A stretch of DNA of 64,000 nucleotides from Escherichia coli. GTDB lineage: Bacteria; Pseudomonadota; Gammaproteobacteria; Enterobacterales; Enterobacteriaceae. Shown here piece by piece: positions 516-21,352 of the stretch. A program made the position numbers and the translations under genes. Location of the stretch: assembly GCA_005400705.1 (NCBI GenBank), contig GCA_005400705.1_4079.1; one strand, written 5' to 3'. Each line of letters starts with the position of its first letter. Position 1 is the stretch's first letter. The notes under the pieces were generated by a model. The model had not been told where the DNA came from. It did not search any database and saw only the letters and a program-made list of their open reading frames with translations.

Positions 516-1688
516 TTATGGTAAAATAATAGCTTGTAACGAACTCATACCCAATGTTGGGACACTCGCCTGTGGTGCTGGTGCATTCACTTTTGGTGAT
601 GAAACCGCATAAGTCATTCCTGTACCCAAATCTGGATCAAAAACTACAGAACAATAATCCCCATTGTATATAAGTCCATTAGTATATCCTTGTGCACTTT
701 GAATGCATTTCGTGAACGTACCAATGTCAGTAGTGGCATTTATTAAGTTCCTCCCACGGTAGCCACAGGTGTATATGAAATTATCAACACCTATGTACAT
801 ACTCGCAGAACCAGAAGAACTACATAGATAAGACATATAAGCACGCATGTTTTTAGGAGCAACTGACAATGTACCAGCATAGAATTTATTATTCATACTC
901 GAAATATCACCATCACCCAAAGCACCAAAACTCCCCCAACCAGTACCATAATATCTCTTATCACTCAAGAATATAATACAGTTGTTATTACACATCTTGA
1001 CTTGATATATCAATGAAGGATCAACCCCAGGGAATGATTCAGTGTATGTTAGAACAGCCAGATCAGTACTAGCATTACATTGATGATATGTATTAGTACC
1101 AGCGGACAATATTGTACCATCAACTAATAGAATCCTCGAAGTGCCAGTACCAGCAATACAAGCAACAGCATTACCTGTATATATTTGTCTGAAAGTAAAG
1201 AAACCAACAGTCTTACTCCCCTGTCCACTCCAACCAGTATTATCAACACCACATGCCCATACTGAACCATCTTGCATGATCATCATTACACCATAGCGTT
1301 CTATCGAAATATAGACAATCTTCGTAGTATCAACTGCACTAAATCTAGAAGTTATATCAGTCCAAACCTTTACACTCACCGCCGTCGCACCGAAAGTAGG
1401 ATCTTCCCCTGCTATCATTATCCTACCATTGTTAGTCAGATACATTGTCTGACTATAACCAGTACTACAAAACTTAACACTATCAGTCTCTGGAACTTTT
1501 AACCACTCGTTGTAACGTGTTACGTTAGTGTTATTACCTAACTGATAATAGTTATTCATCCCAGATACATATAACACACCATCCTTTATTAAACTATAAG
1601 TCGCACTATAGTCACTACAGGTATAACGTGTACCCACAGGTCGCTCAACGACGTTCCCATAATCAAACATTCTAACAAAAGGTAACAT
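516..1688 (-). CDS. RCC1-like repeat (beta-propeller) protein paralog
   Basis: 390 aa ORF; N-terminus MLPFVRMFDYGN; repeated G-x-N-x-x-G-x-LG-x-G-like motifs (YVSGMNNYYQLGNN, YYGTGWGSFGALGDGD); SD upstream. Confidence 0.7.
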   Translation of the reverse strand: MLPFVRMFDYGNVVERPVGTRYTCSDYSATYSLIKDGVLYVSGMNNYYQLGNNTNVTRYNEWLKVPETDSVKFCSTGYSQTMYLTNNGRIMIAGEDPTFGATAVSVKVWTDITSRFSAVDTTKIVYISIERYGVMMIMQDGSVWACGVDNTGWSGQGSKTVGFFTFRQIYTGNAVACIAGTGTSRILLVDGTILSAGTNTYHQCNASTDLAVLTYTESFPGVDPSLIYQVKMCNNNCIIFLSDKRYYGTGWGSFGALGDGDISSMNNKFYAGTLSVAPKNMRAYMSYLCSSSGSASMYIGVDNFIYTCGYRGRNLINATTDIGTFTKCIQSAQGYTNGLIYNGDYCSVVFDPDLGTGMTYAVSSPKVNAPAPQASVPTLGMSSLQAIILP

Positions 1689-9416: not shown

Positions 9417-9693
9417 TTAAACACAAGTAGACAGGGGAAGCTCCTAGTGAACAACCTTTATGTACAGGCGAATTGTTAAAATTCAGCCTGGACAAATGCG
9501 ATCACTAGGATTCTCCCCAGGCTAAACCCCGTAATCATAGGTAGTCATAAGTAATCATATATAAACATTTATATGAGCACCGTAGAATCACAGAATGATT
9601 ATATATGATTCAGTACTGATTAGTATAGACAAGATTGCTCAAGAATGCACGGAAATGTGTGTGAATGATTCAGTACTGATATCCCACTAAGTA

Positions 9694-9720
9694 GGCAGAG
9701 GAAGTCTGCCGTACTTTTTA
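9694..9720 (+). terminator. Terminator-like hairpin
   Basis: ggcag-aggaagt-ctgcc followed by gtacttttt. Confidence 0.4.
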
Positions 9721-9826
9721 GTTTCCAAGCTCCTTTTCCATTTTTCAAATTACATCAAATGTAATCAAAAGTAATCACGCAATGATTAGTACTGAATTAT
9801 TACTTTCACCTTAATTACAATTACCC

Positions 9827-9846
9827 TTTTACCCTTCGGGGTAAAA
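9827..9846 (+). other. Perfect 8 bp stem with UUCG tetraloop
   Basis: ttttaccc-ttcg-gggtaaaa; no T-run after it. Confidence 0.5.
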
Positions 9847-10054
9847 TTCCATTACCCCTTGAGGCTCCAGCAAAAAGTTGGTTAGTACTCCATCCTAAAT
9901 CTCGATCCTAAAAATTTTGGAGTACCTATGAAATAAAAGTTGGATCTTCGAAAGTTGAAATTTACGTTGGGACGTTTATGATTTGTGGGATATAATGATG
10001 TTTGTAGTCGGGTAGTTCTCAAGAATATCAGTACTGAATGATGAAAGAAAGCTA

Positions 10055-10082
10055 TTGACTTTATGATTCAGTACTGTATAAT
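10055..10082 (+). promoter_or_regulatory. Sigma70-like promoter with no ORF downstream
   Basis: TTGACT (10055-10060), 16 nt spacer containing CAGTACTG, TATAAT (10077-10082), then gttttacat; following 150 bp non-coding and ends in a T-run near 10190. Confidence 0.45.
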
Positions 10083-10420
10083 GTTTTACATAGAGAGATG
10101 AGTTGCCGCAAACAATTCATTCACTCTACTTCCTGTCGTGAGACAGTACAGAAAGATAGTTCCTCCTATGGGTGGTACATCTTTTAGAACCTCTTTTTTC
10201 GTAATATGAACAGTACTGATATTAACAGAATGGTGTCAGTACTGATTTTAATTTAATGCATTATGCCACCAGCACAAGCTGGTGGATTCCCTCTAACAGT
10301 ATTCAGTACTACATGATGGTCTTCATCCTCCTAGGGTAACATAGTGAGGGCTATGATGGCAGTACTGAATACTCCCTTTCAAAAGATAGATCTATGGTAT
10401 AGTACTGACGGATTTTGGGC

Positions 10421-10600
10421 GTAGTTACCCTGGATGGATTTTGGACGTAGATATGTCTAGCCCTCCAGAAGTCTGGAAGTAAAGATGGCTATCCATCTAG
10501 ACGGCTAAACGGCTAGATTTCTGGATGGCTGGATGGCTAGACGTTTGGACGGCTAAACGGCTAGATGGTTACACGTCTGGAAGTATAGACGGCTAAATCA
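10421..10600. repeat. Iteron-like cluster of short direct repeats
   Basis: gacggctaaacggctagat x2, gtctggaagta x2, ggattttggRcgtag x2, ctggatgg x3, ggctag x4 within 180 bp. Confidence 0.6.
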
Positions 10601-11220
10601 AAATTTTATTTTGTTTTTTCCAATAGTTCCCCTACCGCGTGGGGATAGTTTCCCCGCAGTATCTGGAGTTAGATTTTTCTGAATCTGGAATCATTATCTT
10701 ATAAACTGGGGGCAATGTCAACCGCCTGGACGGATATTTTTAAAAATTTTTTCAGTACTGAATTTTGGGCGTAACTATGCACCCGGTGGGCTTGAGTCTT
10801 TCTCGACTTGATGGAACTATTATACAGTACTGGAAAAATAAAGCAATACCCTGGAAGCAAAAAAGTTTTAATTAATTTGCTTGCTATCCTGGGCCGGACT
10901 ATGGTACTATATTTCAGTACTGAGAAAGTGCGTTTACCTGCTAGGGTGCGGGAGTGTATCCTTTTTTTATATCTTGAATTTTGGGCGTAATTCCGCACCC
11001 TCTGGGGTTTCCGCTTTCTCGCGTCTATGTAGTAATTATACGCTTTTTCAGGATCAAGTCAATACCTAAAAACAAAATAATTGAAAATAATTTAACGCGT
11101 TTAAACGGCCCGTAAAGCCCTGGAATGATTGGAATGGTGCAAATGTATAGCTTAGGTGTATTAATGCGTTAGAATGCGTCTGAGGCCGTTTTACGGGGTA
11201 TAGGGATGATTTGGTGGATT

Positions 11221-11310
11221 GATTCAGTACTGAATGATAGTACTACTATATAGAAAGATAGTTCCCCTGAATGGTTGCAGTACTGAATGATAGTTCCCCT
11301 ATATAGAAAG
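11221..11310. repeat. Two direct repeats of about 45 bp (cagtactgaatgatag...tatatagaaag)
   Basis: Near-identical tandem copies immediately upstream of the first PeSL-type promoter. Confidence 0.5.
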
Positions 11311-11340
11311 AAAACTATTTTAAAAGTATTTGTAGAAAGT

Positions 11341-11402
11341 ACTTGCAAACTAAGTTTAACGGCGTATAATGTTTTACATCGAGAGCGGGAACACTTCCCG
11401 CT
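11341..11402 (+). promoter_or_regulatory. PeSL-type cassette: sigma70-like promoter plus 5' stem-loop
   Basis: aAGTACTTGCAaact, TATAAT at 11365-11370, gttttacatc, hairpin agcgggaa-cac-ttcccgct (11384-11402). Confidence 0.6.
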
Positions 11403-11425
11403 ACATATTACGAGAGATTAAAACG

Positions 11426-11788
11426 ATGGCGACTCAAATCACTAAAATTATTGCTAACCTGGTTAACTTTCGCGACGAGATGAAAGATCTTCCGGCAGAA
11501 ACGGTAAAAATTCACATTTCAGCTTATCGGGAACTTATTGCAATGTTACCGCTTAAGCGTGAACAATACGCCGCGACCGTGATGCTTGATGCGATGATCC
11601 ATAAGATGATCGCCAGTGATTTAACGATGGTTTATCAGTATATGGGCGAAAATTTCGCGGTGTATAGTAAACCAGTACCAGGAATGGAAAGTACAGAAGT
11701 ATTACACGGTTTAAATTTAAAACAAGATGCATGGGATAATATGCCTCGTTTCCTGGTATGGGCTGACAGTGGCAAGATTTACGAATAA
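11426..11788 (+). CDS. Hypothetical protein
   Basis: Track ORF 11369-11788 trimmed to first ATG after the hairpin (11426, MATQITK); 120 aa. Confidence 0.65.
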   Translation: MATQITKIIANLVNFRDEMKDLPAETVKIHISAYRELIAMLPLKREQYAATVMLDAMIHKMIASDLTMVYQYMGENFAVYSKPVPGMESTEVLHGLNLKQDAWDNMPRFLVWADSGKIYE

Positions 11789-11799
11789 GTTTTAGAAAG

Positions 11800-11861
11800 T
11801 ACTTGCAAACTAAGTTTAAAAGCGTATAATGTTTTACATCAGGTGGGGAATAGTTCCCCAC
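11800..11861 (+). promoter_or_regulatory. PeSL-type cassette
   Basis: agtacTTGCAAact, TATAAT 11825-11830, hairpin gtggggaa-tag-ttccccac. Confidence 0.6.
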
Positions 11862-11881
11862 TATATAAGAGGATTAAAAAA

Positions 11882-12121
11882 ATGGCTAAATCAAAAATGT
11901 TCTTAGGTCACAAAAACAAAACTCATTGGAATGTAAGCCTTTGGATTAATAACGATGAGTCATTGTACCGGTTGGCCCAGGACTTTATTAACGATAGCAC
12001 TAATCGCAATGATGCGGCCCGTCATATGATGTTATTTTTAGAACAGACTGGACAAGATAAAACACCGGACGGATTCAAATATAGCACTACTGCGATCCGT
12101 GCGGCGATGGTTGGAATGTAA
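11882..12121 (+). CDS. Hypothetical protein
   Basis: ATG 11882 (MAKSKMF) after SD aagagga; 79 aa. Confidence 0.65.
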   Translation: MAKSKMFLGHKNKTHWNVSLWINNDESLYRLAQDFINDSTNRNDAARHMMLFLEQTGQDKTPDGFKYSTTAIRAAMVGM

Positions 12122-12134
12122 TAGAATATATTTA

Positions 12135-12170
12135 AAGTACTATCGCAAAAAATGATAGTACTTTATAATA
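12135..12170 (+). promoter_or_regulatory. Promoter variant with AGTACT in spacer (degenerate -35)
   Basis: aaagtactatcgcaaaaaatgatAGTACTttataatag; homologous to the promoter at 23762-23796, which has a TTGACA -35. Confidence 0.4.
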
Positions 12171-12206
12171 GTGTTTTATTCATACACAAACGATAAGGGC
12201 AACAGC

Positions 12207-12473
12207 ATGAATATTAAGTATTTTGCGACGCGTGAACAAGCTCGGATCGCCGCACGCCAGGACGGGGCAACGTTTAAAGATATGGGCGTACAATCGGAAC
12301 GTGGTAAACGTTGGGCCATTATAAAGCGTAGTACCGCCAGATCATTACAGTACTGGTTAGCGGCGTTAAAAAGTCCTGATAGTGTATCGCGTCGAGTGGT
12401 AGAAATAAAGCTCGACCGAAAGGGCAACCGCGTGACCGTGTACCGTACTAAAAAGATAGCAGTACTTGAATAA
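12207..12473 (+). CDS. Hypothetical protein; paralog of 23839-24234
   Basis: ATG 12207 (MNIKYFATREQARIAARQDGATFKDMG...DRKGNRVTVYRTKK) matches KFYATREAARIVAREEGAAFKDMG...DRKGNSVTVFSKRR. Confidence 0.65.
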   Translation: MNIKYFATREQARIAARQDGATFKDMGVQSERGKRWAIIKRSTARSLQYWLAALKSPDSVSRRVVEIKLDRKGNRVTVYRTKKIAVLE

Positions 12474-12540
12474 AAGTACTTGCATACTATGTTTAAAGGC
12501 GTATAATGTTTTACATCGAGAGCGGGAACACTTCCCGCCT
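12472..12540 (+). promoter_or_regulatory. PeSL-type cassette
   Basis: aaagtacTTGCATact, TATAAT 12502-12507, hairpin gcgggaa-cac-ttcccgc. Confidence 0.6.
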
Positions 12541-12559
12541 ATAACCTGGAGTAATAAAA

Positions 12560-12790
12560 ATGACTAATATGTATATGACTGAAGTTAAAACTGTAAAAGA
12601 TACTACCACGAATAAAACTACTTACTTACAGCGGATCTGTGGTGTCTGGCAACGTATCAGCAAAATAAAGTACTATAAATTGACATCACATGCTAACCGT
12701 TCGGATTCATTCAGTACTGAAATAAAAGGTAATAAAGTACACCAATACGGCACTTATTATTATTATAGCCTGGATGCGATTGCAGTATAA
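12560..12790 (+). CDS. Hypothetical Thr/Tyr-rich protein
   Basis: 76 aa ORF after PeSL and SD ggag. Confidence 0.6.
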   Translation: MTNMYMTEVKTVKDTTTNKTTYLQRICGVWQRISKIKYYKLTSHANRSDSFSTEIKGNKVHQYGTYYYYSLDAIAV

Positions 12791-13034
12791 GCAGTTTACA
12801 AATCTTTACAATTGCCGGTATTGACTTATTTTGTCAGTACTGGCATAATGTATTCATTGGCAGATAAGCCGTAGCCCATAGGGTGCGGGAGTGTATCTAT
12901 AGAAAAAGTAGTTTATTACAGTTACAATTGTGCACCCGGTGGGTTAGCTGTTGTCATGGGGTATATTATACCAGTACTGGATAGTGCTGTCAATACCTTT
13001 TTACTATTCAGTACTGAAAACTATTTTTAAAAAG

Positions 13035-13066
13035 TACTTGCAAACTATGTTTAAAGGCGTATAATG
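13035..13066 (+). promoter_or_regulatory. PeSL-type promoter driving a structured leader
   Basis: aaagtacTTGCAAact, TATAAT 13060-13065. Confidence 0.55.
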
Positions 13067-13070
13067 TTTT

Positions 13071-13150
13071 ACATCAGGACGGGGAACGAAATAAGTAACT
13101 TCCCGTTAAGTAGCCCAGGAGTAAGGCACACGAAAAACTCCCCTGATAAA
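13071..13150 (+). ncRNA. Conserved structured RNA element, copy 1 (candidate cis-regulatory leader or small RNA)
   Basis: caggacggggaacgaaataagtaacttcccgttaagtagcccaggagtaaggcacacgaaaaactcccctg; identical copy at 22916-22990, diverged copy about 16030-16110; two predicted stem-loops. Confidence 0.35.
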
Positions 13151-13155
13151 ATAGT

Positions 13156-13183
13156 TTGACAAATGTTTTTAAAAGCGTATAAT
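13156..13183 (+). promoter_or_regulatory. Second sigma70-like promoter after the structured element
   Basis: TTGACA 13156-13161, 16 nt, TATAAT 13178-13183. Confidence 0.5.
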
Positions 13184-13215
13184 ACTTACATCAACTACTG
13201 AATGAGGGTTACAAA

Positions 13216-13827
13216 ATGAAAACTATCACTACTACTACTTTCGTTATGGCTTTTTCTGAATTGAACGCAGAACAACAAACGTCAGCTATCGAACTGGTTC
13301 GGGATCGGGAACGTTCAAGCGGTGATGATTTCTTTTCTGAGTCAGTGATCGAGTACTATAAAGAAACAGTACTACCAGAATATGGAATTGATGACGCTGA
13401 TTTGCAATTCAGTGGTTTTTGGTCGCAGGGTGACGGTGCATCAATCAGTACTGACCACGTTGACGCTGTGAAGTTTTTACGCAAGATTAAAGCATTAACT
13501 AAGTATCGTTCTATCCGTCACCTGCTGAATGAAGATGATTTGGCGATGAGTGTAAAGCGTTCTCACTCCCACTACTCGCATGAAAACACTGTAAGCGGGT
13601 ACATTGAATCGGGGTACACTGATTTAACCGCAAAACAAGAAACGTTAGTTAATGAGCTTGAGGAACTACTCACTGAAACTATTCGTGAATTATCCCGCAA
13701 GTTGTACCGTGATTTAGAGAATGCATATGAGGATCAATTCACTACTGAAAACATTACGGCACTGATTGAGGGTAACGAATATCAATTCAATGTTATTGAT
13801 GGCGTAGTAGAATCTATCGAATATTAA
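13216..13827 (+). CDS. Hypothetical acidic protein
   Basis: 203 aa ORF; SGFWSQGDGASIS motif; family not recognised. Confidence 0.7.
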   Translation: MKTITTTTFVMAFSELNAEQQTSAIELVRDRERSSGDDFFSESVIEYYKETVLPEYGIDDADLQFSGFWSQGDGASISTDHVDAVKFLRKIKALTKYRSIRHLLNEDDLAMSVKRSHSHYSHENTVSGYIESGYTDLTAKQETLVNELEELLTETIRELSRKLYRDLENAYEDQFTTENITALIEGNEYQFNVIDGVVESIEY

Positions 13828-13844
13828 TTCAGTACTGAATCAAT

Positions 13845-13863
13845 GGCGGGAGTGGTTCCCGCC
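13845..13863 (+). promoter_or_regulatory. 5' stem-loop without adjacent promoter
   Basis: ggcggga-gtgg-ttcccgcc then SD aggag and ATG 13884. Confidence 0.45.
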
Positions 13864-13883
13864 TATAACCAGGAGTAAGCATC

Positions 13884-14117
13884 ATGATCGAACAAATTCA
13901 AACGACCACAAGCCGGAGCGGAACGAAAGTACATTACATCGCTGATACTGATAAAGGTGTACCCTATTGTGCTGTACACGTAAATACTGACGGTGACTAT
14001 TGGTTAACTGTATACGGGCGTTACTCGTTTGCTTTTAGTGCACATTGTAAGATCCTGGAAGTAGTGAAGCCTACCGGTAAGAATATCACGCCGGGAAAAT
14101 GTTTTACTAAGCACTAA
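13884..14117 (+). CDS. Hypothetical protein; paralog of 15039-15275
   Basis: 77 aa; shared GVPYCAVHVNT(D/E)G(D/N)YW(L/F)TVYG...PTGKNIT. Confidence 0.7.
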   Translation: MIEQIQTTTSRSGTKVHYIADTDKGVPYCAVHVNTDGDYWLTVYGRYSFAFSAHCKILEVVKPTGKNITPGKCFTKH

Positions 14118-14118
14118 A

Positions 14119-14185
14119 AAGTACTTGCATACTAAGTTTAAAAGCGTATAATACTTTATATCGAGGCGGGGGAATGGTTCCCGCC
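14119..14185 (+). promoter_or_regulatory. PeSL-type cassette
   Basis: aaagtacTTGCATact, TATAAT 14147-14152, hairpin ggcggggga-atgg-ttcccgcc. Confidence 0.6.
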
Positions 14186-14203
14186 TTTACTGAGGATTAT
14201 CTA

Positions 14204-14491
14204 ATGAGCAAAGTAATTAACTATACAGTACTAAGCAAGTCATTATCTATTAGCCAGTGCACCGATGGTTTTTGGCTGTACGATGAAACGCGTGGCATGA
14301 ATTTAGCTATGCGGGAGAAAACTGCTGAGGCGGCGTATTTACAAGCCCTGGAATACTACCAGGAACGTTTAAAGGAAGTAGAAAACAATTATCAAAATTT
14401 AAAAGAGAAAGTAGATAATTTCGTTTGTCAATTCGTTGACGATGACGAGGAAGACGGGCACTACTGCAACCGTTGCGGATCTTACAATTAA
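14204..14491 (+). CDS. Hypothetical protein with C-terminal Cys pair (HYCNRCGSYN)
   Basis: Track ORF 14174-14491 trimmed to ATG 14204 (MSKVINYTV); 95 aa. Confidence 0.6.
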   Translation: MSKVINYTVLSKSLSISQCTDGFWLYDETRGMNLAMREKTAEAAYLQALEYYQERLKEVENNYQNLKEKVDNFVCQFVDDDEEDGHYCNRCGSYN

Positions 14492-14554
14492 GTACTTGCA
14501 ATTAGTTTTCAGTACTGTATAATGGTTTACATCAAAGGGAGAAATGGTTCTCCC
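14490..14554 (+). promoter_or_regulatory. PeSL-type cassette
   Basis: agtacTTGCAAttagttttcAGTACTgTATAAT, hairpin gggagaa-atgg-ttctccc. Confidence 0.6.
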
Positions 14555-14573
14555 TGGTAATGAGGAAAATAAA

Positions 14574-14795
14574 ATGGCTAATATCACTACTCTTTCCCAA
14601 CTGGAAGCACTGGTTAAATCTATGCGGGAACATGCCGACAAAATCGGCGTACAAGATCCAGCCGTTTGCTTCTGCGACGAATTGAATGATGATACCCTGG
14701 TAATAGCAGAAGTCCAGGACGTTTCTAACTATTCCTCGCGTTACACTGGCGGCGTAGCAAATAAAGGTGACTTCTGTTTATACCTTACAAAATAA
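14574..14795 (+). CDS. Hypothetical protein
   Basis: ATG 14574 (MANITTLSQ) after SD gaggaaa; 73 aa. Confidence 0.65.
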   Translation: MANITTLSQLEALVKSMREHADKIGVQDPAVCFCDELNDDTLVIAEVQDVSNYSSRYTGGVANKGDFCLYLTK

Positions 14796-14796
14796 C

Positions 14797-14830
14797 AACG
14801 CGGGGAGATAATAACTCCCCGTTACTTTTT
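14797..14830 (+). terminator. Rho-independent terminator
   Basis: cggggag-ataataa-ctccccg followed by ttacttttt. Confidence 0.55.
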
Positions 14831-14959
14831 CAGTACTGAATCATTTAATAGACGGATCTCGGCACCCGGTGGGTTAGTGACTGTTTCGTCTTGATGTAGT
14901 AATTATGCCAGTACTGGATGCACTTGTCAACAATTATTTTTCAAATACTTTTTATTAAA

Positions 14960-15018
14960 ATACTTGCAATTAGTTTTTAAACGCGTATAATGTTTTGCAT
15001 AGGGGGAGCGGTTCCCCT
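14960..15018 (+). promoter_or_regulatory. PeSL-type cassette
   Basis: aatacTTGCAAttag, TATAAT 14986-14991, hairpin ggggagcggttcccc. Confidence 0.55.
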
Positions 15019-15038
15019 GGTAACTAAGGAATAATAAA

Positions 15039-15275
15039 ATGCTTGAACAAATCAAATCAACGTCTTCGAATGTAACGGGAACGGTAGCACACTTTACTAG
15101 TGATGAATCGCGGGGCGTTCCCTATTGTGCTGTACATGTAAACACTGAGGGTAACTACTGGTTTACGGTTTACGGTTCATATTCATTTGGACGGCCAGGG
15201 CATCAAAAAATTCTGGATAAAGTACAGCCAACGGGTAAAAATATCACTGCTGAAATGTTTTATAAAAAATCATAA
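15039..15275 (+). CDS. Hypothetical protein; paralog of 13884-14117
   Basis: 78 aa ORF. Confidence 0.7.
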   Translation: MLEQIKSTSSNVTGTVAHFTSDESRGVPYCAVHVNTEGNYWFTVYGSYSFGRPGHQKILDKVQPTGKNITAEMFYKKS

Positions 15276-15340
15276 AGTACTTGCAATTAGTTTTTAGTAC
15301 TGTATAATATTTTACATCGCAAGGGGGAGCGGTTCCCCCT
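15276..15340 (+). promoter_or_regulatory. PeSL-type cassette
   Basis: aagtacTTGCAAttagtttttAGTACTgTATAAT, hairpin gggggagcggttccccc. Confidence 0.6.
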
Positions 15341-15359
15341 GGTAACTAAGGATAATCAA

Positions 15360-15659
15360 ATGAAAATTGCAATCATCGCCCTGGCTTTATCTGTTTCCTC
15401 TTTCGCTGTTAATGCGTCATTAGATGTAAGTAGTGAAAAATTCATTCAGTGCACTGTTGCAATGACCGATGAAAGTACTGGCGAGATTGTTTTAAAGGAT
15501 TTAGAGATCCAGCCCGAAGCATTTAAAAACGGGCCGTTCCATGAAGAAGACGAAAAAGGTAGCACGACAATTTATTACGATGCAAGTACTAAACGCGGTT
15601 CGGTCACTGTTATGGATACTGAGAAAGTAACTCATACTGGCGTTATTAATTGCCGTTGA
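15360..15659 (+). CDS. Small secreted or periplasmic protein (predicted signal peptide)
   Basis: 99 aa; N-terminus MKIAIIALALSVSSFAVNA is signal-peptide-like. Confidence 0.65.
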   Translation: MKIAIIALALSVSSFAVNASLDVSSEKFIQCTVAMTDESTGEIVLKDLEIQPEAFKNGPFHEEDEKGSTTIYYDASTKRGSVTVMDTEKVTHTGVINCR

Positions 15660-15680
15660 TAGATACTACGGGGTAACATC

Positions 15681-15911
15681 ATGACTAAGCGAATTGTTTT
15701 ACTTAACGAAAGCAGTACTACACAACTACTTAACGCCGTGCATTATGATATTGAAACGAGCGTTAATCTTATCAGTACTGTAGTACTGTTGGACACTGGA
15801 AAGGTCGCCAATGATAAAGCGATTGCAGGTATACTAACGGATCTTGAGCCTGGTAGCAGTGCACCAATAACGTTAAATGGTAAAGTGTTTAATATTTTAC
15901 TCACTGATTAA
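15681..15911 (+). CDS. Hypothetical protein
   Basis: 76 aa ORF after short gap, followed by a terminator. Confidence 0.6.
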   Translation: MTKRIVLLNESSTTQLLNAVHYDIETSVNLISTVVLLDTGKVANDKAIAGILTDLEPGSSAPITLNGKVFNILLTD

Positions 15912-15916
15912 GTACA

Positions 15917-15945
15917 TAGCCCACCTGGTGGGCTTTTTTGTTTTT
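15917..15945 (+). terminator. Rho-independent terminator
   Basis: agcccacc-t-ggtgggct then ttttttgtttttg. Confidence 0.6.
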
Positions 15946-15992
15946 GTAGTATCGTAGTACTGAGATACTTTGAAAATAGTTTTAAAAAATAG

Positions 15993-16020
15993 TTGACATT
16001 ACCGCAGAAAAGCGTAGAAT
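15993..16020 (+). promoter_or_regulatory. Sigma70-like promoter
   Basis: TTGACA 15993-15998, 16 nt, TAGAAT 16015-16020. Confidence 0.5.
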
Positions 16021-16029
16021 GTATTACAT

Positions 16030-16110
16030 CAAGACGGGGAGCACTAAGTAGACCGCCAGTAAGTCGAACGAAAAACTGGACACGTCGAGAAAACTTTGAT
16101 ACACTAATAA
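16030..16110 (+). ncRNA. Diverged third copy of the structured leader element
   Basis: agacggggagcactaagtagaccgccagtaagtcgaacgaaaaactggacacg shares gacgggga, agtaag and acgaaaaact with the element at 13071-13150. Confidence 0.25.
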
Positions 16111-16143
16111 ACGTAAACTAAACTTTAATTGAGGATTTATAAA

Positions 16144-16626
16144 ATGGCTAATGTAAAATCATTCATCAAAGCACTGGTAGCAAATGAAACTAACGTCGCG
16201 GCAGAGATCCTGGCTGATCTGGATAACGATACCATGAAAGCGGTACGCAATAATTTTAACATCGCTTATAGTACTGCGAAAGAACTACAAGCAAATAAAG
16301 CGGCAGAAATTGAAGCGGCAAAGGCGGCCCGTGAAGCAGAACTACAAGCAACAATTGAAAGTATCCAGGCGGCAGTAGTTGGATTGGATCTGGAAGTAGT
16401 TACAGAGATGGCACAAAAAGCCCTGGCGGTTAAGTATGGGGAAGATAAGCCGGAATCTAAGCCTAAAAAATGGATTCAAAAACGTGTAGCGGTAGTACTG
16501 GACAACGGGGAAGAATATCTGATTCCGGTGCGTGGTAACTGCATTGCGGTAGTACTGGATGCGATTAACTCCAGTGGTATGACTCGCGAGGAATGGATCG
16601 AAGCTCATCGCAAAGTTGAAGCATAA
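16144..16626 (+). CDS. Hypothetical protein with N-terminal coiled-coil
   Basis: Track ORF trimmed to ATG 16144 (MANVKSF); Ala/Glu-rich heptad-like stretch AAEIEAAKAAREAELQATIESIQAA; C-terminal internal repeat VAVVLDN/IAVVLDA. Confidence 0.65.
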   Translation: MANVKSFIKALVANETNVAAEILADLDNDTMKAVRNNFNIAYSTAKELQANKAAEIEAAKAAREAELQATIESIQAAVVGLDLEVVTEMAQKALAVKYGEDKPESKPKKWIQKRVAVVLDNGEEYLIPVRGNCIAVVLDAINSSGMTREEWIEAHRKVEA

Positions 16627-16645
16627 CAATTAAAGTACTGAATCA

Positions 16646-16678
16646 CTAGCCCACCTTAAACGGTGGGCTTTTTTGTGT
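16646..16678 (+). terminator. Rho-independent terminator
   Basis: agcccacc-ttaaac-ggtgggct then ttttttgtgttt. Confidence 0.65.
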
Positions 16679-16824
16679 TTATCGTTTACCAGGCCACCAG
16701 CACCGCCTAGAAACGATTCTAACGCATTAAACTGATTATCTGATGCATTGCCCTAGCTGGTGGCGTTAAGGCTGTAAGAACGCGATTGAGAGCGTTTAAA
16801 GTATTTTGCAAAAAGTAATAAAAA

Positions 16825-16885
16825 GTACTTGCACGATTAAGAGATTAGCGTATAATGTTTTACATCGAGAGGGGGAAACGGTTCT
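16825..16885 (+). promoter_or_regulatory. PeSL-type cassette (imperfect hairpin)
   Basis: aaaagtacTTGCACgat, TATAAT 16851-16856, GC-rich gggggaaacggttctcc. Confidence 0.5.
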
Positions 16886-16911
16886 CCTTCCAAATCAAAG
16901 GAATTAAAACA

Positions 16912-17139
16912 ATGGCTATCGTAATCACTCGCGTAACTGGTACTACTGGCAATTCTTCTACTGTTGCTGTAATTACTAATAAGAAAGGTGCGGAATTGCA
17001 TTTTGCAATGGATAAATGGGCCGTTAATGAGTTCGGTCAGTGGGCAAGTGTAGCATACATTGAAACCTATCAAGTGCCGTCGATTAGTTTAACTGATTTG
17101 GGCGTTGAGCGTATCCTTTGCCTGGATGAATTAAATTAA
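16912..17139 (+). CDS. Hypothetical protein
   Basis: Track ORF 16855-17139 trimmed to ATG 16912 (MAIVITRV); 75 aa. Confidence 0.65.
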   Translation: MAIVITRVTGTTGNSSTVAVITNKKGAELHFAMDKWAVNEFGQWASVAYIETYQVPSISLTDLGVERILCLDELN

Positions 17140-17142
17140 AAA

Positions 17143-17206
17143 AGTACTTGCAAAGTAAATCAGATAAAGTATAATACATTACATCAAGGGGAGAAATGGT
17201 TCTCCC
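17143..17206 (+). promoter_or_regulatory. PeSL-type cassette
   Basis: aaagtacTTGCAAagt, TATAAT 17170-17175, hairpin gggagaa-atgg-ttctccc. Confidence 0.6.
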
Positions 17207-17225
17207 TGATAATGAGGAAACTAAT

Positions 17226-17369
17226 ATGAAAACTTGTCAATGTGGTAAAAAATCTATTACTGGTTTAAAGCGGGGCGTTGCACTTTGCCAGTACCATTAT
17301 AATTTACAAGTATGGGGTAAAGAATGGGCCGACCAGGTGGAAGCAGCAAAGAAAGCAAAAAGTAAGTAA
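17226..17369 (+). CDS. Small Cys-rich protein (possible zinc ribbon)
   Basis: 47 aa hand-translated (below track cutoff): MKTCQCGKKSITGLKRGVALCQYHYNLQVWGKEWADQVEAAKKAKSK; PeSL and SD upstream. Confidence 0.5.
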   Translation: MKTCQCGKKSITGLKRGVALCQYHYNLQVWGKEWADQVEAAKKAKSK

Positions 17370-17384
17370 AAATATTATCACAGT

Positions 17385-17420
17385 ACTATTGACATAGTTT
17401 GATAGTACTGGCATAATAGA
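17385..17420 (+). promoter_or_regulatory. Sigma70-like promoter with AGTACT flanking -35 and in spacer
   Basis: cAGTACTatTGACAtagtttgatAGTACTggCATAAT (TTGACA 17389-17394, CATAAT 17412-17417). Confidence 0.5.
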
Positions 17421-17450
17421 TTTTATCAAGACAACTAAGAGGAAATTAAA

Positions 17451-17795
17451 ATGGCTAATATCAACACTATCGCAAAACAAAATATCAACCTGTCTTCTGT
17501 TGAAGTTGTACATATTGCCGCTCGGCGTTGGTTCCAGGCTTCATATGGTAACACTTATTTCTCTTTAAGTGTAGACGTAGAAATTGATGGTAATTTTATT
17601 GAAGTAGTAAACGTGCCGTTCCAATATGGATACGGGGATCACTTTGACACTGTAGCAATGGAAGAATTTAGCAAGGTTATTAATATGGAAGATAAGGAGT
17701 TTACACGCGGATCGTACCTTTCACGTTTTTGCCGTGATAATAATATCACTGTTTACAGTTCGGTAACTGATGTTAAACGCAAAAAAGATCTTTAA
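17451..17795 (+). CDS. Hypothetical protein; paralog of 23420-23743
   Basis: 114 aa; shared C-terminus (VTDVKRKKDL vs YYDVKRKKDM) and internal GYG motifs. Confidence 0.7.
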   Translation: MANINTIAKQNINLSSVEVVHIAARRWFQASYGNTYFSLSVDVEIDGNFIEVVNVPFQYGYGDHFDTVAMEEFSKVINMEDKEFTRGSYLSRFCRDNNITVYSSVTDVKRKKDL

Positions 17796-17875
17796 TTCGC
17801 TTTACTTTATGCAGATACTTTGATATAGTGTCTGCATAGGGGAAAGAAATTAAATTAACTTAAGAGGAACGTATA

Positions 17876-18145
17876 ATGAAAAATATCAGTACTTTAATCG
17901 ATGCAGGTACACATGTTCGGCGGTCAATGGTTGCAACCAGTACTACAAAACAAGTAGCGAGCGGTTATCTTGTATTTGTGCACGATGGTAAACTCCTGGA
18001 ACGTTCAATCAATTTTGATGTTAAAAACAATTGCCGTTTTATTATCTTTCGCCGTGAACAATATAAGATCGACATTCCAGCGAAGCCCATTAGCGGTGCG
18101 TACAACGTGCAATCATTGTTTGAGCGTCAACCATACACCTATTAA
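17876..18145 (+). CDS. Hypothetical protein
   Basis: 89 aa ORF after SD aagagga. Confidence 0.6.
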   Translation: MKNISTLIDAGTHVRRSMVATSTTKQVASGYLVFVHDGKLLERSINFDVKNNCRFIIFRREQYKIDIPAKPISGAYNVQSLFERQPYTY

Positions 18146-18196
18146 TCAAAACATCGTTAGCGGTTGATTTAGGCCGCTTATATTGAGGATTATACC

Positions 18197-18469
18197 ATGA
18201 ACGTTAATCAAGTACTGAATGAGATCGAAAGCATCATTAAACCGATGAAGCGTACTGATGCTATGTTAACACCGGAAGAATGCCGCCTATATGAGCGTTA
18301 TAGCGTCGAACAAGTCCAGGCAATGGCTATGGCTACCACAGCCGTTAAACCGCCTGAGAATGCGTTACAGGACGTTACAGGGGATTATATCATCAATCCA
18401 GTACTAGGGAAGATGGCTGCAATCACCGAAGATCAACAAGACTACTTAAGCCAGTACTTAAAAGGTTAA
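18197..18469 (+). CDS. Hypothetical protein
   Basis: 90 aa ORF after SD tgagga. Confidence 0.6.
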   Translation: MNVNQVLNEIESIIKPMKRTDAMLTPEECRLYERYSVEQVQAMAMATTAVKPPENALQDVTGDYIINPVLGKMAAITEDQQDYLSQYLKG

Positions 18470-18474
18470 TTAAT

Positions 18475-18684
18475 ATGCTTACTGTACAGGATAAGATCGA
18501 CATCTTAAAGGTTAATATGTATGTGATTGATGCCGTACCTGGTAAAGTATTTGCATACGATGATAGTACTGTAAGCGATTTCTACTATAGCCAGGACGTG
18601 GGGGATCTTTCTGTACAGTCGGTTATTGAAAACGTAGTTAATGCAGCGTATGAGCATTTACTTTCAAATAGTACTTGCAATTAG
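18475..18684 (+). CDS. Hypothetical protein
   Basis: 69 aa ORF. Confidence 0.55.
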   Translation: MLTVQDKIDILKVNMYVIDAVPGKVFAYDDSTVSDFYYSQDVGDLSVQSVIENVVNAAYEHLLSNSTCN

Positions 18685-18733
18685 TTTTTAAACGCGTATA
18701 ATGTTTTACATGAAGGGGAGAAATGATTCTCCC
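18670..18733 (+). promoter_or_regulatory. PeSL-type cassette
   Basis: agtacTTGCAAttag, TATAAT 18697-18702, hairpin ggggagaa-atga-ttctcccc. Confidence 0.6.
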
Positions 18734-18753
18734 CACTAATTAAGGAATATGAA

Positions 18754-18900
18754 ATGAAAGCATCAAAAAAGAGTAATACCAAGAAAGCATGTTCACCTTT
18801 CGCTGGGGTATTCCCTTTACGTTTCGTTGATGAAGTGGTTTCCTACCCGCCGGGCCTTACTCCTGAGATGGTAGAAAGTTTGCGTAAATCTAAAAAATAG
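18754..18900 (+). CDS. Small basic protein
   Basis: 48 aa hand-translated: MKASKKSNTKKACSPFAGVFPLRFVDEVVSYPPGLTPEMVESLRKSKK; PeSL and SD aaggaa upstream. Confidence 0.5.
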   Translation: MKASKKSNTKKACSPFAGVFPLRFVDEVVSYPPGLTPEMVESLRKSKK

Positions 18901-18963
18901 TACTTGCAATTAGTTTTCAGTACTGTATAATGTTTTACATGAAGGGGAGAAATGATTCTCCCC
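18899..18963 (+). promoter_or_regulatory. PeSL-type cassette
   Basis: tacTTGCAAttagttttcAGTACTgTATAAT, hairpin ggggagaa-atga-ttctcccc. Confidence 0.6.
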
Positions 18964-18981
18964 AATAACAGGAGAAACAAA

Positions 18982-19134
18982 ATGAAACAATACAACGCTC
19001 GGTTTGATGTTACTATCGGTAACGGCAAAGGTCAATTCTCTTTCAGTACTCGCAAAAGTTATACAGAAAACTTCCTGCGTAATTGTGCACTGACCGCCGC
19101 TCAAATTAAACATTACTTTCAGGCTAAAAAATGA
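18982..19134 (+). CDS. Small protein
   Basis: ATG 18982 (MKQYNARFD) after SD caggag; 50 aa. Confidence 0.55.
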   Translation: MKQYNARFDVTIGNGKGQFSFSTRKSYTENFLRNCALTAAQIKHYFQAKK

Positions 19135-19220
19135 AATCATTAGCTTACTATAGTTCGGCCCTGGTCGGTACATTGATCGCGGCATTGTTAGTAACCTATC
19201 TATTCTTTATGGTGATTTAA
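19131..19220 (+). CDS. Small hydrophobic (single transmembrane) peptide
   Basis: 29 aa MKSLAYYSSALVGTLIAALLVTYLFFMVI; ATG overlaps previous stop (ATGA). Confidence 0.4.
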   Translation: MKSLAYYSSALVGTLIAALLVTYLFFMVI

Positions 19221-19364
19221 ATGAATCCAACAGGTTTAAATTATAAAAGTTGTTCGGCGTTTACGAAAGCAAATAAAGCGAATGCACGTAAAGCGAAAGT
19301 ACAGGAATACATCAAGCAAGGCATGACGCGAAAGGCGGCGATTCTAAAAGCTAAAAATAAATGA
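19221..19364 (+). CDS. Small basic peptide
   Basis: 47 aa MNPTGLNYKSCSAFTKANKANARKAKVQEYIKQGMTRKAAILKAKNK; ATG adjacent to previous stop. Confidence 0.4.
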   Translation: MNPTGLNYKSCSAFTKANKANARKAKVQEYIKQGMTRKAAILKAKNK

Positions 19365-19373
19365 AAAAAGTGG

Positions 19374-19401
19374 TTGACTCCGGTCAGCCATTTTGCTATT
19401 A
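19374..19401 (+). promoter_or_regulatory. Promoter inside the repeated 100 bp element (copy 1)
   Basis: TTGACT 19374-19379, 16 nt, TATTAT 19396-19401; followed by agcccacagggtgcataagtgtatc. Confidence 0.45.
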
Positions 19402-19489
19402 TATATTCATTGAGAGATAGCTCACTAGCCCACAGGGTGCATAAGTGTATCTATTATATAAGTATTGAGTACTGAAAACTATTTTTAAA

Positions 19490-19554
19490 AAGTACTTGCA
19501 AACTATCTCAATTGGCGTATAATGTTTTACATCGCAAGGGGAAACGGTTTCCCC
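19490..19554 (+). promoter_or_regulatory. PeSL-type cassette
   Basis: aaagtacTTGCAAact, TATAAT 19518-19523, hairpin ggggaaac-g-gtttcccc. Confidence 0.6.
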
Positions 19555-19574
19555 TGGTAATAAGGAAACGAATC

Positions 19575-19916
19575 ATGACTATCTCAATTGCTCAATCTAA
19601 CTTTGAAAACGAAATCATCGCCCAGGCACTGCGTTTAAATGATGGTCGGGCCGAAATTAATTACGGTTTCAATTCAGGCGGTTGCGAAAAATATCAGTAC
19701 TTTGTAACGGCTGATGGCGGTGTCCTGGGGATCAATACAGTTATTGTAAACATTCAGAAAATTAATTTCAATGATCCAGAAGATAGCCAGTTTTACATCA
19801 CGGGCGTGAACGTGAACTATGAGGATGATTATCTAACTGATGATCACACTGGCGAGAAGTTAGAAAGTGCATACGGTGAAGATGATTATCAGTCCGGTCC
19901 AGAAGATTTTGAATAA
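19575..19916 (+). CDS. Hypothetical protein
   Basis: Track ORF 19512-19916 trimmed to ATG 19575 (MTISIAQ); 113 aa. Confidence 0.65.
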   Translation: MTISIAQSNFENEIIAQALRLNDGRAEINYGFNSGGCEKYQYFVTADGGVLGINTVIVNIQKINFNDPEDSQFYITGVNVNYEDDYLTDDHTGEKLESAYGEDDYQSGPEDFE

Positions 19917-19927
19917 TATTAAAAAAT

Positions 19928-19990
19928 AGTTTGACAATAGATTATAGTACTGTATAATAAGTTACATCAAGGGGAGAAATGATTCTCCCC
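19928..19990 (+). promoter_or_regulatory. PeSL-type cassette with TTGACA -35
   Basis: tagTTTGACAatagattatAGTACTgTATAAT, hairpin ggggagaa-atga-ttctcccc. Confidence 0.6.
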
Positions 19991-20010
19991 ACTAACAAAG
20001 AGAAAACAAA

Positions 20011-20223
20011 ATGGCTAATATCTGCACTGTACTGAAAAATGCAAAACAAGTTTTATTTTCTGATCATGAAAATTTCAACAAGGATATTACGGGCGTTCGG
20101 AATATCAAAGATGTAAAAAGTGTTATGGGTATCTATTGCAATATGAAACGTGTTGGTACGTTCGGCGACAAAGTACTATACCAGGCAGGGGATTATAACT
20201 TTACATTAACCATTATCAATTAA
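20011..20223 (+). CDS. Hypothetical protein
   Basis: 70 aa ORF (MANICTVLKN). Confidence 0.65.
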   Translation: MANICTVLKNAKQVLFSDHENFNKDITGVRNIKDVKSVMGIYCNMKRVGTFGDKVLYQAGDYNFTLTIIN

Positions 20224-20237
20224 AATATATTACCAGT

Positions 20238-20272
20238 ACTATTAACAATGATTGATAGTACTGGCATAATAA
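20238..20272 (+). promoter_or_regulatory. Promoter variant
   Basis: ccAGTACTaTTAACAatgattgatAGTACTggCATAAT. Confidence 0.4.
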
Positions 20273-20314
20273 CTTTTATCAACAGTAGTTAACTTAACAA
20301 AAGAGAGAAACAAA

Positions 20315-20458: not shown

Positions 20459-20461
20459 GAT

Positions 20462-20761: not shown

Positions 20762-20763
20762 TC

Positions 20764-21348: not shown

Positions 21349-21352
21349 AAAG

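Follow-up and report, generated by a model that had tools for sequence, protein, structure and literature searches.

A conserved gene-free region at the terminal-repeat boundary of Asteriusvirus jumbo phages is a probable terminal control region

Cis-acting terminal regions of terminal-repeat phages are already known as a kind of element from T5 and T7. The left end of T7 starts with a terminal repeat of 160 bp and comprises 925 gene-free bp, in which the SRL short-repeat array, the leftward promoter A0, the orphan promoter phiOL, and the inward early promoters A1-A3 precede gene 0.3. In T5, a candidate injection stop signal has been described as Repeat Region 3, an untranslated, repeat-rich region of 1.2 kb that lies mostly inside the terminal repeat, extends into unique DNA by 270 bp, and exceeds the open reading frames (ORFs) in conservation (Davison, bioRxiv 10.1101/866236). 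For jumbo phages, long terminal repeats are routinely reported as a length only, and little is known about how their ends are formed and which role the first-entering DNA plays. Here, we analyze a 64,000-nucleotide stretch of DNA (contig GCA_005400705.1_4079.1, filed under Escherichia coli; henceforth termed the window), in which a first-pass annotation had pointed to a 1.9-kb, ORF-free hub at positions 9420-11340 that could be an origin of replication, a packaging or regulatory protein-binding array, or a small-RNA locus. By comparison with related phages, the hub lies at the boundary of a long direct terminal repeat (DTR). We consider it probable that the hub acts in cis as the terminal control region of a long-terminal-repeat phage, being involved in end formation and offering landing sites for host factors at promoters and binding arrays.

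The window belongs to an Asteriusvirus, i.e., a PBECO4/121Q-like jumbo coliphage. The hub found megablast matches in 42 phage records, with Asteriusvirus jumbo coliphages such as PBECO4, 121Q, G17, and fEgEco12 as the top, full-length matches (94-97% identity). Records of relatives that span 366-384 kb contain the hub region twice and those of ~350 kb once; the two copies in G17 lie 350,149 bp apart, and its record terminates on the right within the ORF-free stretch. Nine linear records that carry both repeat copies (G17, ELP-22, CRJP21, E9.1, fEgEco12, vB_Ec-M-J, BF17, WPEC3, and WPEC5) begin or end exactly at window position 9690 (AGTAGGCAGAGGAAGTCTGCC...), and the opposite ends of fEgEco12 (right end) and G17 (left end) map to 29684. 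Since the record ends map to 9690, the hub straddles the left DTR boundary: the first 1,736 nt of the repeat are gene-free, and ~270 nt of the gene-free stretch lie on the unique side. All genes of the DTR, and all genes for at least 54 kb rightward, are encoded on the plus strand and point away from the hub. For the genus, the terminal repeat and its ends have already been published (G17, fEgEco12, vB_Ec-M-J, and Sharanji), with a terminus that agrees to the base with that of the window. Termini were mapped with PhageTerm and confirmed by restriction digests for fEgEco12 (repeat of 20,993 bp; PMC13070987), with PhageTerm for Sharanji (20,668 bp), and by read coverage for G17. In the searched text of the fEgEco12 and Sharanji papers, the repeat length is given, and promoters or non-coding regions go without mention. 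Comparison with relatives shows, at the level of sequence, a cut at 9689/9690 and a conserved non-coding leader of 1.74 kb; for the hub as a whole, we infer a function from the features laid out below.

The sequence bordering the cut is shared beyond the genus. The 27-nt flank reads GAATGATTCAGTACTGATATCCCACTA^AGTAGG in the window and, nearly identically, GAATGATTAAGTACTGATATGCCACTA^AGTCCG in Klebsiella phage RaK2, at a position that corresponds to base 1 of Klebsiella phage Muenster (Alcyoneusvirus), whose terminus is PhageTerm-defined. The window genus and that of RaK2 and Muenster share ~30% average nucleotide identity (ANI; table in PMC13070987). This flank is a candidate recognition sequence for an end-forming nuclease or terminase. 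A related outer flank, CAGTACTGA-N-CACTA^ or CGCTA^, occurs in the Asteriusvirus EJP2 and in Salmonella phage Munch. The core of the left junction is CAGTACTGATATCCCACTA^AGT (...CCACTA^AGTAGG) and the sequence at the right junction of the window is GGGTAACTT^AGCGAC; each cut thus lies 5' of AG. Other terminus types, as in Munch and Erwinia phage pEa_SNUABM_12 (Eneladusvirus; henceforth pEa12), have a different palindrome in place of the terminal hairpin. In EJP2, everything to the left of ~9896 is replaced by a Munch-type end, CAGTACTGA-N-CACTA^TATCTTCT, which suggests that the terminus module is exchangeable between genera in a modular swap of the end-forming site. In the numbering of the EJP2 record, this Munch/Eneladusvirus-type terminus (CACTA^TATCTTCT...) occupies 660-1270, aligned to window 9420-9896, instead of the AGTAGGCAG type.

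The claim that 9420-11340 is free of ORFs was borne out. Six of the seven hub ORFs of 42-99 aa are disrupted by a stop or a frameshift in one or more of the five relatives compared, and the seventh (10981-11115) is intact and lacks a third-codon-position bias, with 9/9/11 substitutions by codon position. The 99-aa minus-strand ORF shows 39/28/29 substitutions, compared with 9/3/14 for the real gene at 9225-9416. Searches of all seven against PHROGs and Pfam returned no match. These comparative, PHROG, and Pfam tests rule out a protein-coding reading of the hub. The consequence for annotation is that the six to eight "hypothetical proteins" that several GenBank records place here are almost certainly spurious, because the ORFs are broken or unbiased and have no PHROGs or Pfam match.

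The leader is nonetheless well conserved. Among six Asteriusviruses, column identity reaches 0.90-0.99 at 10300-11180 and 0.92-0.97 at 9900-9980, compared with 0.79-0.90 in flanking genes; variable parts are 9420-9460, 9580-9660, and 11180-11300. A sensitive search also recovered hub blocks in other jumbo-phage genera, near the starts of their records. The Muenster and Munch records are reopened at PhageTerm-defined repeat boundaries, and the pEa12 record starts as that of Munch does (TATCTTCTC). The first 1.3-1.8 kb of all three are gene-free, and, counted from the terminus, their matches to the window are collinear and on the same strand (plus/plus; Table 1 for Munch). The four genera, which otherwise share ~23-30% ANI (table in PMC13070987), thereby display one element order from the end inward. 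The cut site with a terminal palindrome comes first, followed by a AAAWTTTGGAGTACC block and by P1, a sigma-70-type promoter that lies 270-370 nt from the end and points inward. A GC hairpin follows P1 at a distance of 105-200 nt, and after it come a GAWTTTTGGGYGTA box, the repeat array, a hairpin block that is likewise conserved, and a promoter directed leftward. Two further promoters, one rightward and one leftward, then converge on an inverted repeat (AGGGTGC...GCACCCT), and the first standard early promoter and the first gene close the series. Among individual elements, the block at 9884-9930 shares 93% identity over 43 nt with Munch (86-128 from the Munch end) and is also present in pEa12; the GC-rich hairpin at 10266-10285 is annotated as a terminator in G17 and recurs in Munch at 482-505; GAWTTTTGGGTGTAC of the GAYGGATTTTGGRCGTAG boxes is conserved in Munch and pEa12; and the block at 10614-10665 has collinear matches in both phages and a like sequence, judged by eye, in Muenster. 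The most conserved cross-genus block surrounds the inverted repeat at 10943-11001 (70.6% over 235 nt with Muenster, E = 9e-31), whose arm cores AGGGTGC and CACCC are invariant in five aligned sequences from four genera.

Such conservation bears on the most deflationary alternative, in which the hub is the debris of decayed gene cassettes, i.e., promoter and terminator modules left without function after gene loss. Promoter modules and facing-promoter/inverted-repeat modules do recur elsewhere in the repeat, and 9420-9660 and 11180-11300 are variable, with indels. Decay would, however, hardly leave 10300-11180 better conserved than the neighboring genes or keep the element order across four genera with so little ANI, and we regard this explanation as highly improbable.

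Table 1. Features in and around the hub, in window coordinates, followed by the collinear matches between the window and Munch (distances from the respective end)
Feature	Position	Strand	Remarks
Gene-free stretch on the unique side, ~270 nt	9417..9689		from the gene at 9225-9416, the last of the unique region, to the DTR
Conserved outer flank of the cut, GAATGATTCAGTACTGATATCCCACTA^	9663..9689	+	near-identical in RaK2/Muenster
First base of the DTR, taken as physical left end of virion DNA (AGTAGGCAGAGG...)	9690		nine related records
DTR, 19,995 bp as mapped onto the window	9690..29684	+	record ends of relatives
Hairpin GGCAGA-GGAAG-TCTGCC, 5 nt from the end	9694..9710	+	in all nine termini
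TCAAATGTAA tandem repeat (GTAATCA repeats)	9745..9777	+	mirrors copies at 9531-9559 across the cut
Perfect 8-bp hairpin, TTCG loop (TTTTACCC/GGGTAAAA)	9827..9846	+	kept in close relatives only
Conserved block ...CTCCATCCTAAATC...AAAATTTTGGAGTACC	9884..9930	+	0.92-0.97 column identity in Asteriusvirus
P1, orphan sigma-70-type promoter-like site, TTGACT-16-TATAAT	10055..10082	+	11/12 consensus; 366 nt from the end, inward
GC-rich hairpin CCACCAGC-ACAA-GCTGGTGG	10266..10285	+	~190 nt downstream of P1
Two GAYGGATTTTGGRCGTAG boxes	10407..10453	+	further copies at 10757-10777 and 10973-10993
19 contiguous 8-bp units, consensus AGAYGKCT, "met box"-like	10443..10594		single register
Conserved block TTTTCCAATAG...CCGCG...GCAGTATC with hairpins	10614..10665		0.95 column identity
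P2, promoter-like TTGACA-17-GATAAT, leftward, aimed at the array	10693..10721	-	11/12
P3, weak rightward promoter-like TTGCTA-18-TACTAT	10881..10910	+	8/12, from alignment
Inverted repeat AGGGTGCGG ... CCGCACCCT	10943..11001		between facing promoters P3 and P4
P4, leftward promoter-like TTGACT-16-TATAAT, then TACTACATAGAC	11035..11062	-	11/12
Box AATGCGTTAGAATGCGTCTGAGGCCGTTTTACGG	11163..11202	+	resembles T5 9266-9299 (Repeat Region 3)
Two 44-nt direct repeats, each with CAGTACTGAATGATAG	11215..11311	+	variable in copy number and length between relatives
First standard early promoter, TTGCAA-16-TATAAT + GTTTTACAT + 5' hairpin	11343..11370	+	module found at least 15 times in the repeat
First DTR gene, 120 aa	11426..11788	+	phrog_7352, E = 1e-58; start as annotated in 121Q, CRJP21, and A4
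Match to Munch	167-307 nt from terminus	+/+	Munch 127-263 from its end
Match to Munch	519-598 nt from terminus	+/+	Munch 424-505 from its end
Match to Munch	926-1032 nt from terminus	+/+	Munch 814-922 from its end
Match to Munch	1302-1405 nt from terminus	+/+	Munch 1074-1178 from its end
Match to Munch	1633-1705 nt from terminus	+/+	Munch 1203-1275 from its end

All features listed by the first-pass annotation are present where it had placed them, among them the orphan promoter P1, which is near consensus and has no gene downstream. The number of promoter-like sites in the hub lends it no weight (12 compared with 12.3 expected from shuffled sequence), and the case for promoters is instead made by their conserved position across genera. 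Sites syntenic to P1 occur in Muenster (271-299, 12/12), Munch (331-359, 11/12), and pEa12 (269-297, 10/12). The P1 spacer contains CAGTACTG, and the predicted initial transcribed sequence, GTTTTACAT, equals that of the standard early promoters. P2 has a syntenic site in Munch (922..894) and, by eye, in pEa12 (CTTGCA-17-GATAAT). The counterparts of the weak P3 are stronger matches in Muenster (1217-1246), Munch (947-975), and pEa12 (949-978), and those of P4 lie at 1404..1377 in Muenster and 1146..1118 in Munch. Related modules are scattered through the repeat: an early-promoter cassette composed of AAAAGTACTTGCA-N-TATAATGTTTTACAT, a GC hairpin (e.g., GGGGAGAA-ATGA-TTCTCCCC), and a ribosome-binding site occupies 11322-11400 and at least 15 more sites in 12473-28818, and a facing-promoter/inverted-repeat module (CCCATAGGGTGCGGGAGTGT ... 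GCACCCGGTGGG ... minus-strand TATAAT) recurs between repeat genes at 12815-13030 and 14826-14918.

A small-RNA locus, as also proposed in the first pass, would be compatible with a terminal control region. P1 would produce an RNA of 120-200 nt that ends at the GC hairpin, the facing P3 and P4 would produce short sense and antisense RNAs across the inverted repeat, and the conservation would reflect RNA function. The pairing of P1 with a hairpin 105-200 nt downstream is conserved in the four genera, fold z-scores are low (-4.7, -3.2, and -4.9), and in the distant Pseudomonas relative PA5oct, whose repeat genes are early, dependent on the host polymerase, and read almost only from one strand, two abundant non-coding RNAs map inside the terminal repeat. 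The z-scores are, however, inflated by DNA palindromes, and the conserved stems are invariant and thus provide no covariation in support of RNA pairing. The region that P1 would transcribe does not align between genera. Scans of the whole window with ARAGORN for tRNAs and with Rfam at gathering thresholds had no hits, and relaxing Rfam to E values up to 5 for 9300-11500 gave nothing credible. A small-RNA function seems a realistic but minor possibility.

The repeat array suggests a candidate host reader. The direct repeats listed in the first pass (GACGGCTAAACGGCTAGAT at 10500 and 10548; GTCTGGAAGTA at 10471 and 10575; CTGGATGG at 10430, 10521, and 10529) are present, yet they are not separate elements but pieces of a single 8-bp-periodic array of 19 units. 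Its consensus, A-G-A-Y-G-K-C-T, matches AGACGTCT, the operator box of MetJ, whose operators consist of tandem 8-bp "met boxes" that are bound in tandem (PMC4239095). Each of the 19 units, all in one register, agrees with AGACGTCT at 4-7 of 8 positions (mean 5.8). For the 17 units tested by register, the mean match is 5.65 of 8 in register compared with 0.8-1.9 in the other seven registers. By the same measure, the genuine E. coli metJ-metB operator (AGACGTCA ATACATCT GGACATCT AAACTTCT, taken from a bacterial fragment filed among phages) scores 7/6/6/6 of 8, i.e., similarly per unit. Array and E. coli operators have in common the contiguous 8-bp period and the same consensus at all eight positions; where at least two contiguous boxes near AGACGTCT characterize a MetJ operator, the hub has 19, compared with 4-5 in the metJ-metB operator. 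Within the 64-kb window, four-unit runs of metJ-metB quality occur in the array only; the same scan found just the homologous array in 30 kb of G17 and no met-box runs in 50 kb of fEgEco12 or 45 kb of PA5oct. We interpret the array as putative MetJ binding sites. No MetJ homologue is encoded in 50,697 phage records, and the reader of the array would therefore be a host protein.

Similar arrays recur in other phage groups. In further jumbo genera they lie ~725-845 from the record start (Erwinia and Serratia phages) or at 38-144 (Yersinia phages). Among T7-like podoviruses they are found 46-117 nt from the left end of PGT2, in phiKT, and near the right end of KPV811. T5-like Demerecviridae of Aeromonas, Vibrio, and Providencia carry them as well, e.g., AhSzq-1, in which a 29-unit array occupies a gene-free gap beside the A1/A2 pre-early genes and adjoins a DnaA box and a Fur-like box. 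Many of the arrays, including those of most jumbo-phage and Vibrio records, lie <1 kb from the record end. In Muenster and Munch, the syntenic slot is filled by Fur-box-like arrays of the GAGAATGATTCTCATT type with 3-5 mismatches to GATAATGATAATCATTATC, and the boxes are those that make up, in T5 Repeat Region 3, the direct-repeat-C/palindrome E-I elements (E = 5e-10). Arrays of this AAATGAGAATCATTATCATT type are located at 783-917 and 1058-1096 in Muenster, 695-800 and 1036-1057 in Munch, and 468-640 in T5. Sites resembling those of host regulators thus appear to fill a fixed slot in the gene-free region at the boundary of the long repeat. Of the functions proposed in the first pass, a packaging or protein-binding array comes closest, with the physical end at 9690 and an array that matches a known operator in the same hub, although MetJ binding itself is putative.

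An array of this size could instead act as a sponge: met boxes, or Fur-like boxes in sister genera, replicated to hundreds of copies would titrate host MetJ or Fur and thereby de-repress methionine and S-adenosylmethionine (SAM) synthesis or iron uptake for the phage, with the terminal position being incidental. Nineteen boxes present twice per genome far exceed the metJ-metB operator, and it is consistent with this idea that boxes resembling those of different host regulators occupy the same slot in different genera. Titration would, however, account neither for the location of such arrays at or close to genome ends in three phage groups that are unrelated nor for the conserved order of the neighboring elements, and we hold it to be improbable.

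The array also entered the proposal that the hub is an origin of replication, at which transcripts initiated at orphan promoters would act as primers or help to open the DNA, by analogy with phiOL/phiOR of T7 and oriF/oriG of T4, and the array would bind an initiator. Gene-less promoters, an array of short repeats, and AT-rich stretches are all present, the plus-strand GC skew changes sign at ~9.5-10 kb, and phiOL, an orphan promoter at the left end of T7, is linked to replication. Beyond these general traits, we found no positive support. Iterons typically span ~17-22 bp, unlike the contiguous 8-bp period of the array, and a T7-like phage carries an array of the same type at 40-114 nt from its end. 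Exact DnaA boxes are absent from 9300-11450; a binding-box scan of the hub returned no DnaA box, no Fur box, and one IHF-like site. No rep-like gene is adjacent, and neighboring ORFs have no initiator family match. The skew switch is local and hence gives an origin no support: the negative stretch is ~23 kb wide, and fEgEco12 shows positive skew at 304-330 kb, with negative values confined to 330-353.7 kb, an interval that holds mostly a minus-strand block of RCC1-like paralogues and 4.6 kb of small plus-strand ORFs. An origin deduced from GC skew was accordingly rejected once the fEgEco12 sequence was extended by 50 kb to the left, since the negative skew proved to be this narrow and to track mostly the minus-strand RCC1-like genes. 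With iterons, an initiator gene, DnaA boxes, and a replication-linked skew switch all lacking, an origin is distinctly unlikely.

The composition to the left of the hub shows further peculiarities. A tight array of plus-strand ORFs of ~60 aa occupies 5400-9416, with a GC skew of -0.13 to -0.2 and a strongly positive AT skew. Strand composition switches at the repeat boundary without a change in gene direction, the plus-strand genes on the right being opposite in skew to 5400-9416. Further left, 516-5332 (minus strand) encodes four tandem paralogues of 375-390 aa with RCC1-like repeats, elsewhere annotated as "DNA condensation protein"; they belong to a 14-gene minus-strand block, composed mostly of such paralogues, that ends the unique region of fEgEco12, and Munch has 13.

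The hub is also rich in palindromes. The first-pass annotation had reported at least five copies of a palindromic repeat, AATGATTCAGTACTGA, at 9590-10090; of these, the copy at 9664 is exact, those at 9604 and 10062 are approximate, that at 10028 is inverted, and that at 9781 lacks one base. Likewise confirmed was the perfect TTCG-loop hairpin, which is not seen in the other jumbo-phage genera compared. The shorter motif CAGTACTG occurs 12 times in the hub, compared with 2.1 copies expected from the window average (P = 2.6e-6) and ~0.02 from base composition, and is enriched over the rest of the repeat (P = 1.5e-4). The motif is not private to the hub; it is genome-wide and merely enriched here, with 71 copies in the window (0.85 expected) and 278 copies of AGTACT (21.5 expected). 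CAGTACTG is located in promoter spacers, upstream of -35 elements, and within genes. In spacers, it often abuts the -10 element (tttCAGTACTGtataat), with the -35 region reading AAAAGTACTTGCA. AGTACT/CAGTACTG is dense in 4000-30300 and 44700-51500 and absent from 30301-44690; AGTACT density is 6-9 per kb in the terminal regions of Muenster, Munch, and pEa12 and 0.09 per kb in PA5oct. A reading of CAGTACTG as a site for SlmA (GTGAGTACTCAC, in which G1, T2, A4, and G5 are obligatory and position 3 is a purine) was rejected: among the 278 AGTACT sites, there are no full matches and one half match, and position 3 is mostly C. On the unique side of the boundary, 9417-9689 contains an inverted repeat (9428-9450/9502-9524), GTAATCATAA repeats at 9531-9559, and two CAGTACTG sites (9611 and 9671), and is variable among relatives except for its final ~30 nt.

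Set against the two known systems, the hub combines traits of both. With T5 Repeat Region 3 it shares an untranslated region of more than 1 kb, rich in repeats, palindromes, and inverted repeats, that lies across the boundary of a long terminal repeat, overruns it by ~270 bp into unique DNA, is better conserved than the neighboring ORFs, and contains arrays of host-regulator-like boxes. The boxes themselves provide links in both directions, with the T5 AAATGAGAATCATTATCATT boxes recurring in the sister-genus phage Muenster (E = 5e-10) and the met-box array of the window recurring in T5-like AhSzq-1 next to the A1/A2 genes. In the orientation of G17, where the repeat genes read leftward from the region, the layout is that of T5. 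Unlike Repeat Region 3, the hub has no DnaA boxes (TTWTNCACA), which T5 carries in pairs within large inverted repeats; the 131-bp IRD'/IRC' pair and the DRD repeats of T5 were not seen in the hub, although no specific search was made for them. The similarity found is one of 41 nt, between 11163-11202 and T5 9266-9299 (AAYGCGTTAGAATGCG-TCT-AGGMCGTTTTA; 83%, E = 1e-3 in a small search space), a weak lead that may be due to chance because of the small search space and because the orientation to the repeat boundary differs. The window phage is, moreover, a 350-kb myovirus and T5 a siphovirus. With the left end of T7, the hub shares a gene-free leader beside the physical end, a short-period array, inward promoters for the host polymerase, a leftward promoter, and a gene-less promoter, and T7-like PGT2 has the same 8-bp unit array. 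T7's own repeats are of the CCTAAAG type with longer spacing and not met-box-like, the 20-kb terminal repeat of the window is far from the short repeat of T7, and the hub lacks promoters for a phage RNA polymerase.

From these features, a terminal control region would operate as follows. Replicated DNA would be cut between 9689 and 9690 by an end-forming nuclease or terminase, guided by the flank with its CAGTACTG palindrome and CCACTA and by the terminal hairpin. A second cut would fall between 29684 and 29685, so that virion DNA would begin at 9690 and carry 9690-29684 at both ends. The 1.74 kb after the cut would serve as a leader of cis-acting sites, not genes, in the order kept across four genera. 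Such a leader may be built for host proteins, which, bar any injected proteins, would be the only DNA-binding proteins present when the DNA arrives. It would offer promoters to sigma-70 RNA polymerase, namely the inward P1 and two leftward ones, and host MetJ-SAM repressor could assemble cooperatively on the 19-box array, in the position of which sister genera and T5 have Fur-box-like arrays. The resulting nucleoprotein complex at the repeat boundary could control events at the DNA end. One role may be to gate or pause the entry of the genome and the onset of early transcription, as has been proposed for T5 Repeat Region 3 and is known for the left end of T7, and another may be to mark the boundary for the processing of concatemers. 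Two geometries would fit, because virion DNA would have the hub at its extreme left end and again at the inner edge of the right repeat: one like the T7 left end (window orientation), in which P1 would be the first promoter to enter the cell, and one like T5 Repeat Region 3 (G17 orientation). In a more specific version, MetJ-SAM, or Fur in sister genera and T5, would lock the incoming DNA, with the roadblock pausing entry or early transcription until it is released by conditions or early phage products. We regard this lock as unlikely.

Several points weigh against a MetJ-reading terminal control region. MetJ binding, promoter activity, and the direction of DNA entry are all things that we infer from sequence. 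The termini of the window were placed by homology, and the agreement of the nine termini may in several cases reflect placement by homology to earlier records instead of an independent measurement. Promoter-like sites are no commoner than in shuffled sequence in the window, Muenster, Munch, and pEa12, whose regions are AT-rich. Unlike E. coli MetJ operators, the array has G at box position 6 (AGACGGCT) in about half of its units and lies away from promoters of the methionine regulon; it overlaps none, no met-regulon gene is near, and the nearest promoter-like sites are at least 85 nt away, so it is not a conventional operator. Records with an array match stem in 83 of 84 cases from phages of Enterobacterales, Vibrio, or Aeromonas, orders that have MetJ; this correlation favors a MetJ reading, but it is partly a by-product of an E. 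coli phage query and a collection rich in enterobacterial phages. Xanthomonas phage XbC2 (OP292654.1, 647-819) carries a like array and Xanthomonadales are without MetJ, such that either the host attribution or the MetJ reading needs checking.

The genes of the repeat provide little additional orientation. For the first of them, whose product has no Pfam match, the start at 11426 is more plausible than the G17-style start (11369-11788), the ATG of which lies within the promoter -10 box (TATAATG). The product of 21413-21769 is a GNAT acetyltransferase (Pfam E = 4e-9) and among the few repeat gene products with a family match, and the ORF at 25101-25742 has protein-kinase-like matches below threshold. 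When the repeat genes were searched with Pfam for a SAM-degrading enzyme, these two sets of matches were all that was returned.

In the literature we searched, the coverage of which is incomplete, we found no description of the gene-free leader, of the element map across genera, of the flank conserved at the cut site, or of the array as met boxes, and no link between met boxes or MetJ and phage genome ends. Our analysis yields a base-precise cut site, a flank that crosses genera, a non-coding element map for four genera, and a candidate ligand, host MetJ with SAM. The cis-acting "injection stop" of T5 is a decades-old problem that would become directly testable if host repressors are its readers. 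If the lock proves true, it would constitute a checkpoint common to T5-like, T7-like, and jumbo phages of MetJ-bearing hosts, and a jumbo myovirus would have a staged DNA transfer like that of T5, with the 20-kb repeat as first-step DNA.

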